64,000 nucleotides of DNA from Acidobacteriota bacterium (GTDB taxonomy: Bacteria; Acidobacteriota; Thermoanaerobaculia; Multivoradales; UBA5704), in assembly GCA_040349255.1 (NCBI GenBank), contig JBEQUE010000218.1, forward strand, positions 24,036-88,035, written 5' to 3'. Each line of letters opens with the position of its first letter. The stretch's first letter is position 1. Below, piece after piece: positions 4,667 to 41,381 of the stretch. Under the pieces are notes generated by a model. That model did not search any database. It saw only the letters and a list, made by a program, of their open reading frames with translations, and had not been told where the DNA came from. The translations under genes and the position numbers were made by a program.

Positions 4667-5587
4667 ATGCGGTCCATGGAACCAGGAACTTCCCACCCCG
4701 TCATCCTTGCGGCCACCGACTTCTCGGAGACCGCCGAGGCCGCGCTGGACTGGGCCGCCGAGCTGGCCCGCCTCCAGGGGGCCCGGCTGGAGCTGATCCA
4801 TGCCGTGATGCTCCCTCCAGCGATGTCCGGCTTCGTGGCGCCCGGTCCCCTCTTCGACGAGGAGGTGCGCGCCGCCGCCGTCGCCCGGCTCGGCGAGGCC
4901 GCCGGCCGCCTCCGCCAGGCCTCTCCGGGGACCGAGGTCGCCACCCATCTCGCGATGGGCACGCCTTCCCAGGTCATCCTCCACCGCGCCGGAGAGCTGT
5001 CGGCGGCGGCCATCGTCATGGGCACCCGCGGCCTGACCGGCCTGCGCCACCTCCTCCTCGGGAGCACCACGGAACGGGTCATGCACCGGGCGCCGTGCCC
5101 GGTGCTCTCGGTCCACCCCGGCGACCGCGACCGCCACCGGCCGATCCGCTCGATCCTGGTGCCGACCGACTTCTCCAGGGACGCCGAGCTCGCCATCGAG
5201 GCCGCCCACCGGCTCCTCGCGCCCCTGGAGCAGGACGCGCGCCTGGTCCTCCTCCACGCCTTCAACCTGCCGATCGAGTACACCGCCTACGGGCCGATCC
5301 CGACCTCGGTGGACTATCTGAAGGACCGCGGTCTGGAGTCCGAGCGTCTCCTGGAGGAGATGCAGGAGCGGCTGCTGCGCGAGGGCCTGGCCGTGGAGAC
5401 GGTGGCCCGCGAAGGAGACCCGGCCGAGGTGATCGCCTCCGAGGCCGAGTCCCGCGGCGTGGATCTCATCGCCATGGGCACCCACGGGGGGTCCGCGCTC
5501 CGGCACCTGCTCCTCGGCAGCACCGCCGCGCGGGTGCTCCAGCACGCCGCCTGCCCGGTGATGACGATCCGGCGGCCGGAGGAGTAG
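4667..5587 (+). CDS. tandem universal stress protein (two UspA domains)
   Basis: Last 306 codons of ORF 3335..5587, starting MRSMEPGTSHPVILAATDFSE. Two repeats each end in the GxxG...LLGS(T)T..V motif (IVMGTRGLTGLRHLLLGSTTERV and IAMGTHGGSALRHLLLGSTAARV). Confidence 0.85.
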   Translation: MRSMEPGTSHPVILAATDFSETAEAALDWAAELARLQGARLELIHAVMLPPAMSGFVAPGPLFDEEVRAAAVARLGEAAGRLRQASPGTEVATHLAMGTPSQVILHRAGELSAAAIVMGTRGLTGLRHLLLGSTTERVMHRAPCPVLSVHPGDRDRHRPIRSILVPTDFSRDAELAIEAAHRLLAPLEQDARLVLLHAFNLPIEYTAYGPIPTSVDYLKDRGLESERLLEEMQERLLREGLAVETVAREGDPAEVIASEAESRGVDLIAMGTHGGSALRHLLLGSTAARVLQHAACPVMTIRRPEE

Positions 5588-18237: not shown

Positions 18238-18246
18238 GCTTTTGCG

Positions 18247-18459
18247 CGCCACGACACGTGGCGACTCGCCACGAGGTGTGGCGTCGCGCAGCAGGGCGTG
18301 GCGAGACCATCCCCTGTTGTGGCGCCTCGCCACAACACGTGGCGGAGCGCCACAAGGCGTGGCGAGGCGCGGAGAGACGTGGCGAGGCCATCCCCGACCG
18401 TGGCGCCTCGCCACAGCGCGTGGCGCGGCGCCACGAGGCGTGGCGGGTTCCCCCCGGTG
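18247..18459. repeat. intergenic array of CGCCAC-N5-GTGGCG palindromes, including an 81-bp tandem duplication (18298-18378 / 18379-18459)
   Basis: Six 17-bp palindromes at 18247, 18267, 18328, 18348, 18409 and 18429, plus GTGGCG-cct-CGCCAC junctions. The two 81-bp units align base for base with scattered substitutions. Confidence 0.85.
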
Positions 18460-18461
18460 CG

Positions 18462-18510
18462 TTGACAGTCCTGGCAGGCGGAGTAAGAATCCAGGAAGTA
18501 TGATTCTTAC
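18462..18510 (+). promoter_or_regulatory. putative vapBC-2 promoter with overlapping operator palindrome
   Basis: TTGACA at 18462-18467, 16-17 nt spacer, TAAGAAT at 18484-18490. A perfect inverted repeat GTAAGAATC-N10-GATTCTTAC (18483-18510) overlaps the -10. GGGAGG precedes the ATG at 18528. Confidence 0.5.
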
Positions 18511-18527
18511 CGAGGCCGGGAGGTCGC

Positions 18528-18758
18528 ATGCGCATCACCAGCAAGGGACAGGTCACCATTCCCATCGAGATCCGGGAACGGCTGGGGCTTCTGCCTCACA
18601 CCGAGGTGCGGTTCGAAGTGGATGGGAACGCCGTGCGGATTCTCCGGGAGAAGACTTCCGATGGGCGGGGCCAGCGGCTGGTCGAGCGGATGCGGGGCCG
18701 GGCGACCTCGAAGATGAGCACCGAGGAGATCCTCGCCCTGACCCGCGGAGAGAGCTGA
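18528..18758 (+). CDS. vapB: AbrB/MazE/SpoVT-type antitoxin (VapB)
   Basis: ORF track 76 aa. MRITSKGQVTIPIEIRERLGL is the swapped-hairpin AbrB-type motif. Confidence 0.85.
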   Translation: MRITSKGQVTIPIEIRERLGLLPHTEVRFEVDGNAVRILREKTSDGRGQRLVERMRGRATSKMSTEEILALTRGES

Positions 18759-38461: not shown

Positions 38462-39028
38462 GTGAAATACCGCACCCGTGATCTGGGCTCCAAGTATTTT
38501 GGCCGTGCCATCAGGAAATGGCGTCTTTTTGCAGGACTCTCGCAGGAGGAGCTGGCCGGGGTGGCCGGGATGAGCGTCACGCTGCTCGGAACCATCGAGA
38601 GAGAGCGCGGGCACATCTCGGAGGAGATCCTGAGCCGGCTCTGCCTCGGCCTGGAGTCGGCGCTGGGCAAGCCGATGCTGGGCCACGTCTTCTATGAGGG
38701 CATCGAGGCGATGTGGAAGGACCTCCTGAAGAGCGAGAGGGGCCTGAGGCAGGAAAAGGGCTGGGCCGTGGTCGAGTACGAGACCTCGAATCTGGCCGAG
38801 GAGGATCTCGAGCAGGCCTTCGATTCCGCGCTGACCGAGCTCAAGAAGTGCGGCCTGCTCCTCTACCGGGCCATGGGCTTCCGGAAGACGGGAGAGGGCT
38901 GGACGCCGGCCTCGCGCACCGACCTGCCACCCGAAGGCCCCCGCATCCCCGCCGAAACCGGCAAGGTCCGCGTACGGAGAGTGGCCCAGGGAGCCGGCCA
39001 ACGGCAGCCAGGCAAGAGAATTCGCTGA
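38462..39028 (+). CDS. XRE-family helix-turn-helix regulator with a ~110-aa C-terminal extension
   Basis: ORF track 188 aa. IRKWRLFAGLSQEELAGVAGMSVTLLGTIERERGHIS is an HTH_3 motif. Confidence 0.75.
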   Translation: MKYRTRDLGSKYFGRAIRKWRLFAGLSQEELAGVAGMSVTLLGTIERERGHISEEILSRLCLGLESALGKPMLGHVFYEGIEAMWKDLLKSERGLRQEKGWAVVEYETSNLAEEDLEQAFDSALTELKKCGLLLYRAMGFRKTGEGWTPASRTDLPPEGPRIPAETGKVRVRRVAQGAGQRQPGKRIR

Positions 39029-39175
39029 TCCGAAAACGATCCTCGTCGGGCGGCTCGGTTTTTTCTCGGAGCCGCACGGAAGAGAGTGAAGGCCCTGTGA
39101 ATTTCTCCAACGGCGCCATCTCAGCGGCGTCGGATGGAGGTGCGCTCAACGAAGTTTGGACGAGGAGATGGCCGG

Positions 39176-39829
39176 ATGAGAAACTTCGTTCTCGGATGGG
39201 GCGTGGTCGGTGCCGTTTTCTTCCTTGGCTGTCTCCCTGCGCGAGTCGTGGCCCAGGGAGGAAACGAGAGTTGGACAGGCGCGGTGGTTCTCGAGAGCGT
39301 CGAGGCGGACCAGATCCTGGTCGCCGTGGACACGCTCAACGAGGGCCGGCCCGCGGACGGAATCGTGGATCGAGTCTTCTGGTATACCGCGCAGTCGCCG
39401 CTGGAGGCGCCCCTCTCGGAGAGGATCGAGAGAGCCAACCTGGAACTCGGGGCGGGCGTCCTGCGGGTGACCTCTCCGGAGGATCCGGAGGTCTTCTTCC
39501 TGTTCTCGGTGAGAGGAAGGCAGCGGGAGCGCTCTTCGCCGGCCGCCGGCAGCCGGGCCAATGTCTTCACGAACGGGCTGGCGCTCGCCACCTACACCTT
39601 GGCTCCGGACAGGGCCAGCCTGGACAACCTGAAGTCCATCATCGAGGCGGATACCGAATACCAGGACTACACCCCCGGCGGATCCGGCGGGACGATCTGC
39701 ACCGCGGGCGGAGTGGGCTCGACGTCCTGCTCGATCACCTGCTCCGGGCTGAGCTGCTCCGTCTCCTGTGGAGCGGGATATTCCTGCTGCAGTTGCAGCG
39801 GAGGCTCCCCGAGTTGCCGCTGCAAGTGA
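39176..39829 (+). CDS. predicted lipoprotein with a Cys/Ser/Gly-rich C-terminal tail
   Basis: Frame of ORF 39134..39829. MRNFVLGWGVVGAVFFLGC has a lipobox-like FLGC. The last ~50 aa are GGSGGTICTAGGVGSTSCSITCSGLSCSVSCGAGYSCCSCSGGSPSCRCK. Confidence 0.65.
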   Translation: MRNFVLGWGVVGAVFFLGCLPARVVAQGGNESWTGAVVLESVEADQILVAVDTLNEGRPADGIVDRVFWYTAQSPLEAPLSERIERANLELGAGVLRVTSPEDPEVFFLFSVRGRQRERSSPAAGSRANVFTNGLALATYTLAPDRASLDNLKSIIEADTEYQDYTPGGSGGTICTAGGVGSTSCSITCSGLSCSVSCGAGYSCCSCSGGSPSCRCK

Positions 39830-39880
39830 CTGGGCGCGAAGGGACACAGACAGGTGCCCTCCGGCCCGCGCGGCGCCGAT

Positions 39881-40140
39881 AACCTTGAATCGCCGCGGAC
39901 TGCGCTGATCTGGCGCGGATGAGCTGGTTTTGCCGTGGATGGGCTTTTTCCGGCCTGGATCAGCTTGCTTTGGCGCAGATAAGCCCGTCCTGCCCTGGAT
40001 GGCTCGGTTTTACGGCGGATCAGCTCGTCTTGCGCTCGATAAGGTGATTTTGCCGCGGATGAGCTTGTTCCGCGCCGGATAACCTCGAATCGGCAGGGAT
40101 AAGGCCGTTTTGTCCTGGATAAGCTCGAATCGCCTTGGAT
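39881..40140. repeat. 13 head-to-tail copies of a degenerate 20-bp unit (consensus about RAGCTYGTTTTGCCNYGGAT), perfectly phased, non-coding
   Basis: Read directly from the sequence. Every 20th base block ends in GGAT in 10 of 13 units (AGAT, CGAT, GGAC in the others), with no indels between units. No ORF of 60 aa or more on either strand, and 20 is not a multiple of 3. Confidence 0.9.
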
Positions 40141-40158
40141 TACGTTGAAACGCCTCCT

Positions 40159-40193
40159 GGCGGCCAGCCGCGCGTCTGCGCGCGCCGGCCGCC
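40159..40193. terminator. long GC-rich hairpin between the repeat array and the VOC gene stop
   Basis: GGCGGCC...CGCGCG tctg CGCGCG...GGCCGCC. Outer 7-bp and inner 6-bp stems, 18 nt past the stop at 40211 (minus strand), and no U-tract. Confidence 0.35.
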
Positions 40194-40210
40194 TCGACCG
40201 CGAGGCGCCT

Positions 40211-40708
40211 CTACCCCTCGTAAGCCTGCTTCAGCTCGGCGATGTCGAGCTTCTTCGAGCGCATCACGACCTCCATCACCCGCCTGGACTTCCCGGGGTC
40301 CGGATCCTTCAACATCTCGGCCACGACACGAGGGACCACCTGCCAGCAGAGTCCGAACCTGTCCTTCAGCCAGCCGCACTGCCTTGCGTTCTCGTCTCCG
40401 CCCTCCGACAGCTTCTCCCAGTAGTAGTCCACCTCTTCCTGGGTATCGCAGTTGACCTGGAACGAGACGGCCTCGTTGAACTTGAACTGCGGGCCGCCGT
40501 TGAGCGCGGTGAACGTGTGGCCGTCCAGCTCGAAGGCCACGGTCAGCACCGCGCCCGCCGGCTTGCCATGGATCTCCTGGCCCGCCTCGCTGTAGCGGGC
40601 GATGCTGGTGATCCGCGAATTCCTGAAGATGCCCGTATAGAGCTTGGCGGCCTCCTCGGCCTGGTCGTCGAACCACAAGCAGGGGGTAATCGTTTGAATG
40701 AGTTGCAT
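40211..40708 (-). CDS. VOC-superfamily protein (PhnB / 3-demethylubiquinone-9 3-methyltransferase-like domain)
   Basis: Last 165 codons of ORF 40211..40786. MQLIQTITPCLWFDDQAEEAAKLYTGIF...CGWLKDRFGLCWQVVP is typical of this family. Confidence 0.8.
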   Translation of the reverse strand: MQLIQTITPCLWFDDQAEEAAKLYTGIFRNSRITSIARYSEAGQEIHGKPAGAVLTVAFELDGHTFTALNGGPQFKFNEAVSFQVNCDTQEEVDYYWEKLSEGGDENARQCGWLKDRFGLCWQVVPRVVAEMLKDPDPGKSRRVMEVVMRSKKLDIAELKQAYEG

Positions 40709-40789: not shown

Positions 40790-40899
40790 CTAGCAGTCTG
40801 CGCGGCAGAACCGAACCGGGGTCCTTGCTTTTCGCTGGGACCGCCGGCTTCCCAGCCGGCCAAGCCGGAGCGCCAGATGGAGATGACCGTGGCGCGGTC
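40790..40899. repeat. left arm of a ~110-bp imperfect inverted repeat
   Basis: Hand alignment with the reverse complement of 41274..41381 gives about 7 substitutions and 3 single-base gaps, with the innermost 36 bp identical. It contains GGAG-N7-ATG GAG ATG ACC GTG GCG CGG (MEMTVAR) reading inward. Confidence 0.85.
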
Positions 40900-40917
40900 G
40901 TTTCGGGCCGCGCCGAC

Positions 40918-41272
40918 GGCCGGTTCATCGAGCTCGTCGGAGGATCCGAAGAGTTTCCTGAGCCTCTCGACAAGGCCGATGAACGGTCCGTCAAGGTCGC
41001 CGGACGGCCCATCGAGGTCGATGAACAGTCCGTCGAGGTTTCCGGACGATCCGAAGAGGTTCCCGAAGGCCCGAAGAGCCCGACGAACGGCTCACCAAGG
41101 TCGTCGAATGGCTCGTCAAGGTCGCCGGACGGTCCGGAGGGTTCGACGAGAGGCTCGTCGAGCTTCCCGGACAGCTCGTCGAGGTCGTCGGACGATCCGA
41201 CGAGGTCCTCGAACGGTCGTCGAGAGGGATGAACGGCTCATCGAGGCCGTCGGACGCCTCGTCGAGATCGAC
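40918..41272. repeat. 17 tandem units of 21 bp (two units are 20 bp), a heptad-coding repeat
   Basis: Units such as GAACGGCTCGTCAAGGTCGCC. The minus strand reads heptads VDLDEAS DGLDEPF ... GDLDEPF DDLGEPF, and the plus strand reads ERSVKVA GRPIEVD EQSVEVS. The 20-bp units at 41065-41084 and 41211-41230 break every frame. Confidence 0.85.
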
Positions 41273-41273
41273 G

Positions 41274-41381
41274 GACCGCGCCACGGTCATCTCCATCTGG
41301 CGCTCCGGCCTGGCCGGCTGGAAGCCGGCGGTCCCAGCAAAAGCAAGAACCTCCGGTGCGTTTCTTCCGCGCAGCTCCTAG
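41274..41381. repeat. right arm of the inverted repeat (overlaps the pyrF stop codon)
   Basis: See the left arm. On the minus strand it carries the same MEMTVAR start at 41296, reading inward. Confidence 0.85.

Follow-up and report, generated by a model that had tools for sequence, protein, structure and literature searches.

What holds 13 poorly matched copies of a 20-bp unit in exact register, in a gap between genes that encodes nothing? The question is raised by positions 39881-40140 of a 64-kb stretch of DNA (64,000 nucleotides, here called the window) from an acidobacterium of the class Thermoanaerobaculia, an assignment supported by the relatives of its PyrF. An original prediction, made from the letters of the window alone, had offered three answers, namely an iteron-like set of protein-binding sites, a small RNA displaying GGA motifs at regular spacing, and a minisatellite generated by slippage. 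The same prediction took strict phasing in the face of sequence divergence as a sign of selection on spacing. In what follows, the array itself is described, and these answers are weighed against its neighbourhood, its distribution in relatives and the behaviour of similar arrays elsewhere in the lineage.

Sequence and Authenticity of the Array

On direct inspection, positions 39881-40140 of the plus strand consist of 13 abutting 20-bp units with no indel between them. A repeat search recovered the same stretch in an ungapped 20/40-bp register, and autocorrelation gave a lag-20 identity of 0.542, versus 0.262 +/- 0.028 in 5000 shuffles (z ~10), a value above the 99.9th percentile of all 240-bp stretches in the window. 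The 13 phased units and the absence of indels were thus correctly described at the outset. Degenerate partial units carry the plus-strand array somewhat further at both ends, to approximately 39874-40160, with a partial unit (CGCCGAT) at the left edge and a decayed 14th unit (TACGTTGAAACGCCTCCTGG) at the right. The GC content of the array is 58%, and its flanks are GC-rich.

The units share the consensus AAGCTTGTTTTGCCGCGGAT, and their pairwise identity averages 57.5%. Two sub-types can be recognized, consisting of GTTTTG units and GAATCG units (units 1, 11 and 13), and the A-type unit pattern reads AGCT-N-GTTTTGCSGYGGA. Conservation among the columns is uneven, with a dispersion about twice that of a uniform-decay null (p=0.004). 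Columns G18 and A19 show no variation, and T20 and G12 are each present in 12 of the 13 units, as opposed to columns 1, 6, 13 and 15, which are close to random. GGA is found in 11 units and GGAT in 10, and all 13 end in GA(T/C). There is also a weak 40-bp higher order, identity being 0.61 at a distance of two units versus 0.54 at one. The only palindromic element in the unit is a 4-6-bp AGCT/AAGCTT core, and no other unit-like site was found elsewhere within the 64-kb window. Among other repeat types, a CRISPR array was considered and rejected, as the units abut and show no repeat-spacer periodicity.

An assembly artefact, which the original prediction had named as a possible undoing of its own case, is unlikely because an independent Logan assembly of SRR29434313 (contig L081) matches base for base, with 100% identity over 1182 bp that include the whole array. 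The array is also non-coding, as first claimed, although the argument from stop codons needed correction. Stops were said to occur in all frames; they do so in five of the six, and minus-strand frame 0 is free of them over all 260 bp. This open frame raises the possibility of a coding region or pseudogene remnant, either in the open minus-strand frame itself or as a decayed repeat protein. Such an origin is barely credible, however. The frame is open simply because the reverse complement of the consensus contains no stop triplets, and a 20-bp period can give a repeated peptide only at a period of 60 bp. No ORF of at least 40 aa with a start codon exists in that frame, no gene was called at the array in L081, and the terminator of the upstream minus-strand gene lies directly before the array. 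Given the lack of such an ORF and of a gene call, the array stays non-coding, and it is both real and non-coding.

Genomic Setting and Presence in Relatives

The array is placed between the 3' ends of two convergent genes, a lipoprotein-like gene on the plus strand and a PF06983 gene on the minus strand. Its surroundings had been described as a Cys-rich lipoprotein gene with an XRE gene upstream and a GC hairpin beyond, and all of these coordinates hold. The lipoprotein-like ORF (39134..39829, plus strand) stops about 50 nt before the array and encodes a signal peptide and a lipobox. It has no Pfam match and just seven homologues in a collection of 5.8 billion proteins, in which its Cys/Ser/Gly-rich C-terminal tail (...CSITCSGLSCSVSCGAGYSCCSCSGGSPSCRCK) is kept. 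Upstream of it lies an XRE-type HTH gene (HTH_3/31 by Pfam; 38462..39028, plus strand), and an exact-protein look-up gave no record for its product. On the other side of the array, a strong GC hairpin on the minus strand (40142..40206, with its core at 40159-40196; dG -49.6, z -4.5) is followed by GUUUC. It serves as terminator for the convergent PF06983 gene on the minus strand and marks the right-hand limit of the array. The PF06983 gene itself (40211..40708, minus strand) is assigned by Pfam to a 3-demethylubiquinone-9 3-methyltransferase or glyoxalase/VOC-like family, and the neighbouring ORFs as a whole match Mur ligase, HTH_3/31, PF06983, OMPdecase (pyrF) and histidine kinase. A 12-nt direct repeat, CCGCG(C/A)GGCGCC, is present at 39866-39877 and again at 40198-40209, where it brackets the array together with the terminator hairpin. 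It may be a chance occurrence in GC-rich DNA or the footprint of a duplication.

The array is missing from the closest relative and from the loci of lipoprotein homologues. In L001, the closest GTDB relative, with 85% nucleotide identity over pyrF and the histidine kinase gene, the PF06983 gene comes directly after pyrF and is followed by a HigB/HigA-like toxin-antitoxin pair, with no array after the PF06983 gene. Three loci with a lipoprotein homologue (L082, L083 and L084; 72-79% identity) likewise carry no such array downstream of that homologue, and the pairing of XRE and lipoprotein genes is retained in L082 and L084. The array is therefore strain- or species-specific and not tied to the XRE gene. 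Judged by gene order, its site is a synteny breakpoint near pyrF. A role as the operator of the XRE gene was likewise rejected, there being no unit-like site upstream of that gene, and the XRE/lipoprotein pairs of L082 and L084 do without the array. The only other copy of the array that was found is the identical one in L081, and a pattern scan for A-type arrays in metagenomes returned only unrelated 20-bp repeats among the matches listed.

Readings as RNA or as Part of a Replicon

One way in which the array could conceivably function is as RNA. It would be transcribed as a long 3' UTR of the lipoprotein gene, or as an sRNA derived from it, and its approximately 12 GGA/GGAU motifs would titrate an RNA-binding protein such as CsrA. 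In such a transcript, 10 of the 13 units would end in GGAU and all 13 in GA(U/C). Plus-strand read-through into the array is possible because the hairpin after the lipoprotein stop (39832..39867, plus strand) is weak, being no better than shuffles (z -0.8), and has no U-tract; transcription from the lipoprotein stop to the hairpin at 40159-40196 is thus plausible. A related array in the genome L037, discussed below, also lies about 40 nt after a stop codon on the same strand, but a shared orientation in two of two arrays has p=0.25 by chance.

The remaining evidence makes a function as RNA improbable. An Rfam search, which had been suggested as a check, gave no match to the array at the gathering threshold or even at E<=10, and no array was matched when the window and ten array-bearing loci were searched. 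RNAalifold shows no consensus structure for the unit on either strand. In the MFE fold of the array, for which z is only -2.5, most of the GGA motifs are paired in long-range stems, and whole-region folds reach only modest z-scores, which are due to the flanking terminators. No sigma-70-like promoter was found for the array, and the strong hairpin lies downstream. In tblastn searches of the window and the fetched loci no csrA was found, a weakly informative result as these represent part of the genome. Furthermore, most of the sister arrays with this period contain no GGA motifs, and such arrays are found in divergent promoter regions. The CsrB/RsmZ-like sRNA of the original prediction, left with neither an Rfam match nor a GGA-presenting hairpin nor a promoter, is not supported.

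Another reading holds that the units are iterons, or a partition centromere, of a replicon that is integrated or cryptic. Iterons are characteristically direct repeats of 17-22 bp with two-turn spacing, and the parC centromere of pSK41 consists of 20-bp tandem repeats; the confirmed 20-bp direct-repeat period of the 13 units speaks for this reading. However, the array lies among housekeeping genes of the chromosome (a Mur-ligase-family gene, pyrF and a histidine kinase gene), and the flanks are syntenic with those of relatives. No rep, parA, parM, parR or parG gene occurs within several kb, an AT-rich unwinding element is absent, and the window contains no GC-skew turn. The array has one DnaA-box-like site only (TTATCCACA-like, with at most two mismatches), and blastn gave no match among 72,556 plasmids (PLSDB) or 50,697 phages (INPHARED). 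A replicon origin is accordingly very improbable. A datA-like cluster of DnaA boxes was also rejected, there being just the one site with at most two mismatches.

A Class of Two-Turn Arrays in the Lineage

The array can also be considered in the light of similar arrays in related genomes. When all of the fetched loci were scanned by sliding autocorrelation and by TRF at lenient settings, those from Thermoanaerobaculia and related organisms (492 kb) yielded approximately 24 non-coding arrays whose fundamental period is 20, 21, 41 or 42 bp, whereas pyrF loci of other phyla (466 kb), searched with the same methods, yielded approximately one. An array in L032 departs from this rule, with a period of 29 bp. 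Almost all of the arrays (24 of 26) are wholly intergenic, in tandem, convergent and divergent settings alike. Their GC content ranges from 0.46 to 0.75, and most sister arrays have a short palindrome in each unit. The units themselves are unrelated; no 6-mer recurring at least 4 times was present in more than 4 of 23 arrays, and no motif common to every array of the class was found. Literature searches returned no account of such arrays in this lineage. It is with moderate confidence that the array at 39881-40140 can be regarded as one member of an intergenic, two-helical-turn class that is common in Thermoanaerobaculia.

How common this class is depends on where one looks. Out-of-sample acetyl-CoA synthetase loci (~88 kb, non-redundant) added a single array, of 21 bp, to the class; any other period seen there was a multiple of 3. 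With approximately one array per 88 kb out of sample, the density away from pyrF is below 1 per 20 kb, and because density drops away from pyrF, the estimate of abundance is sample-dependent. The flanks of pyrF are in fact a hot spot, where differing arrays occupy the same site in L006, L012, L029 and the window. Arrays in pyrF flanks were observed in L002, L006, L012, L029, L032 and L034 and at 40798-41374 of the window. The one in L006 has a 41-bp period and 94% identity, and the one in L012 consists of 26 units of 21 bp with GGAAGCTTCC palindromes.

The window itself carries three members of the class, at 18245-18445, 39881-40140 and 40914-41276. The first of these (18245..18445, plus strand) repeats every 20 bp, with an unrelated, palindromic unit (GTGGCG..CGCCAC) and a higher order of 81 bp. 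It begins 8 bp past one gene, and 17 bp separate its end from a TTGACA-17-AAGAAT promoter-like site of a small ORF at 18504-18758. The third, detected by autocorrelation and TRF, has approximately 17 units of 21 bp (40914-41276) and is contained within a 575-bp palindromic element at 40798..41374 that fills the spacer between pyrF and the PF06983 gene. Terminal inverted repeats of 103 bp, 92% identical, flank the 21-bp array in this element, which, taken as single-stranded DNA, folds up into one giant hairpin (z -19). The element is missing from L001, where pyrF and the PF06983 gene abut, and Logan contig L081 ends inside its left arm.

Structures of other kinds adjoin some of the arrays. In L034, an Acido-Lenti-1 RNA motif (RF01687, 39.2 bits) is located at 1397-1442 between a 20-bp array and pyrF, and array and motif together are bracketed by 49-bp inverted repeats (790-838 / 1443-1491). 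A boundary of terminal inverted repeats, as in a mobile element, is thus true of 40798-41374 and of the L034 array, and was rejected for the array at 39881-40140 and for 20 others. A boxA-like sequence, TTCTTTGACAACTGAAG, adjoins arrays in two unrelated loci, one represented by L022, L030 and L020 (~7480-7640 in L022) and the other by L082 (~4965-4985). In L020, L022 and L030 a long and highly conserved hairpin (GGGTGCCAGCC...GGCTGGCACCC) comes after the boxA-like sequence, and a perfect TTGACA-19-TATAAT site is found at the other end of the array. This boxA-hairpin stretch is possibly a leader or ncRNA that has escaped annotation. Strong promoters adjoin three of the sister arrays, which is no more than expected of intergenic DNA, and the array at 39881-40140 has no adjacent promoter, so that a promoter-associated upstream element was rejected as well.

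Evolution of the Arrays

Orthologous arrays that can be aligned were available for three sisters of the array, in L022, L030 and L020. Between L022 and L030 the arrays are 90.5% identical with no gaps in 316 columns, and the flanking genes agree at 87-93% of their third codon positions. Between L020 and L022 the arrays are 72% identical, and third codon positions 77-87.5%. By these alignments, orthologous sister arrays are diverging at or above the synonymous rate. No purifying selection on the unit core was detected in them, and the substitutions in the L020-L022 array do not spare it.

Changes in length follow a different rule. Gaps between L020 and L022/L030 measure 21, 20 and 42 nt, with one single-base gap in addition (L020 vs L022). 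Because orthologous arrays change by 20-, 21- and 42-bp steps, selection on spacing is not needed to explain a strict register, and the inference first drawn from the phasing can be set aside. Nor are zero indels in 260 bp worthy of remark, since the sister arrays of L012 and L083 show approximately one off-register indel per 200-250 bp. Whole-unit turnover is directly visible in the sister array and would, by extension, apply to 39881-40140. The third of the original answers, a minisatellite, is therefore right in kind, as the array consists of non-coding, head-to-tail repeats and its sisters step by whole units.

A Distant Relative and Action at the DNA Level

One array in another genome does resemble the unit. 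The array at 11587-11815 of L037, with 21/42-bp units, has AGCT and a 13-nt core, GTTTTGCSGCGGA, in common with the array of the window, and it starts approximately 40 nt past a same-strand stop codon. The genome is a distant one, its PyrF being only 70% identical. The alignment score of the two arrays is 19, which was reached by none of 300 shuffles; for 35 shuffled consensus units, the best score under the null is 10.6 +/- 1.9. If arrays of this class drift at the synonymous rate, the likeness to L037 needs selection, mobility or a common source. Taken together, the conservation of GGAT and the occurrence of GTTTTGCSGCGGA in a distant array show that the unit family is not fully free to drift. 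The L083 array was also tried as a homologue and rejected, its alignment score not rising above background.

These features bring up another means by which the array might function, namely as DNA. The 13 units would be phased weak binding sites, comprising GGAT, AGCT and a T-tract, for a protein, sequence-specific or architectural, that would cover the DNA along one side of the helix. The resulting complex could serve as an element of nucleoid organization or topology, such as a platform for gyrase or a nucleoid-associated protein (NAP) between convergent units, in the manner of REP/BIME clusters. Such a function fits the two-helical-turn period seen in the array and throughout the class, as well as the uneven columns with their conserved GGAT, the core held in common with L037 across deep divergence, the absence of RNA structure, and the position between convergent terminators. 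On the other hand, no candidate binder was found, the array is missing in the nearest relative, L001, and the units of sister arrays are unrelated, so that no single sequence-specific protein can serve all of the arrays. Moreover, the orthologous sisters evolve at or above the synonymous rate without sparing the unit core. Phased weak binding sites are the main rival explanation, possible though doubtful. What is left of the first of the original answers is the generic possibility of action at the DNA level; its more specific form, with a rep, par or DnaA cluster, a likeness to plasmids or phages, or a link to the XRE gene, fell away. Should the array be functional at all, it would most likely act on DNA, through phased weak sites or through bendability confined to one face of the helix. 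We infer that such an element, architectural or topological, would resemble the REP/BIME clusters.

A broader and more speculative proposal concerns the class as a whole. Thermoanaerobaculia chromosomes could carry a bacterial form of 'satellite DNA', with unrelated units and a period locked to integral helical turns (20-21, 41-42 bp), although this is on balance unlikely. By extrapolation from the sampled loci, a genome might hold as many as some hundreds of such arrays between its genes. Locking of the period would then reflect selection on the shape of the DNA and not on its sequence, and the array at 39881-40140 would count among the working copies. Candidate roles for a locked period include phased bendability for a nucleoid protein, gyrase, and the pinning of supercoils. 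An alternative to selection on shape is a dedicated, ruler-like mechanism of amplification.

The Preferred Explanation and Its Relation to Known Repeats

There is about an even chance that the array is a lineage-typical, two-helical-turn minisatellite whose phase is kept by whole-unit turnover, without a locus-specific regulatory role. Under this explanation, arrays would originate and alter their length in whole-unit steps, by slipped-strand mispairing or unequal recombination, and single units would meanwhile drift through point substitution at an approximately neutral rate. Whole-unit turnover, rather than selection on spacing by a locus-specific binder, would preserve the register despite a unit identity of 57%. 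The copy described here would occupy a harmless spot, the gap between convergent 3' ends at a synteny breakpoint next to the pyrF hot spot. Several findings weigh against this explanation. Uneven column conservation (p=0.004) and the conserved GGAT run counter to pure neutral decay, the core held in common with L037 is likewise at odds with free drift, and the fact that nearly all periods are ~20.5 bp or multiples thereof is unexplained by simple slippage.

The closest known counterparts of the array are bacterial minisatellites or VNTRs, such as the MIRU of mycobacteria. Like these, the array consists of non-coding, intergenic, head-to-tail repeats whose presence varies among relatives. Their change in length by whole units is matched by the gaps of 21, 20 and 42 nt in the sister arrays, and their lack of sequence conservation at orthologous sites is matched by the absence of the array from L001 and L082-L084. 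Unlike minisatellites and MIRU, however, the array has a shorter unit (20-21 bp) and far more diverged copies (57% identity), and many unrelated units share one two-turn period within a single lineage.

Enterobacteria carry REP/BIME clusters, among them REP325/naRNA4 (PMC4550694); these extragenic repeats are abundant and lineage-specific, and they often occur at the 3' ends of genes or between convergent genes. The array is similarly extragenic and located between convergent genes, and most of its sisters are palindromic in each unit. It differs from REP/BIME in that its units are direct, abutting and strictly periodic, in that its AGCT/AAGCTT core provides no hairpin potential, and in that no RAYT transposase is known for it. 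Compared with the dispersed copies of REP/BIME, it also has no second copy in 64 kb and one related array in another genome, L037.

With plasmid iterons (RK2, F, P1 and pPS10) and pSK41 parC, the array shares non-coding direct repeats of ~20 bp at two-turn spacing. It is unlike them in lacking Rep or Par genes, an unwinding element, DnaA boxes and any database similarity, and in being chromosomal, with 13 highly degenerate copies. A likeness to CsrB, RsmY and RsmZ consists in the many GGA(U) motifs within a few hundred nucleotides. The array departs from these RNAs in its rigid spacing, in the lack of GGA-presenting stem-loops and of a promoter or Rfam match, and in having sisters without GGA.

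Taken by itself, the array looks like an ordinary minisatellite of bacteria, and no role for it can be demonstrated. What merits attention is the class, in that arrays of an uncultured and poorly studied lineage have nearly all a period of about two turns, whatever their sequence, and recur at common intergenic hot spots such as the pyrF flanks with units that differ by species. If the preference for this period should prove to be genome-wide, it would point to a DNA-structural constraint or a mechanism of amplification not described for bacteria, and questions about satellite DNA would become testable in a prokaryote. If the preference fails, the array is simply junk DNA at a synteny breakpoint.

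Other 20-bp Repeats in Metagenomes

A separate family of repeats was encountered among the metagenome matches. Near-perfect 20-bp tandem repeats of 2.5-13 copies occur in L096, L123, L128, L150, L165 and at least ~60 other metagenome loci. Repeats of the L096 type consist of a common core, GCTCAGGATGAC, plus 8 variable bases, and form a family of repeats that is widespread and has no relation to the array at 39881-40140. The contigs that carry them range from 38 to 71% GC, and the repeats adjoin GTCATCCTGAGCG.AGCGAAGGATC palindromes.
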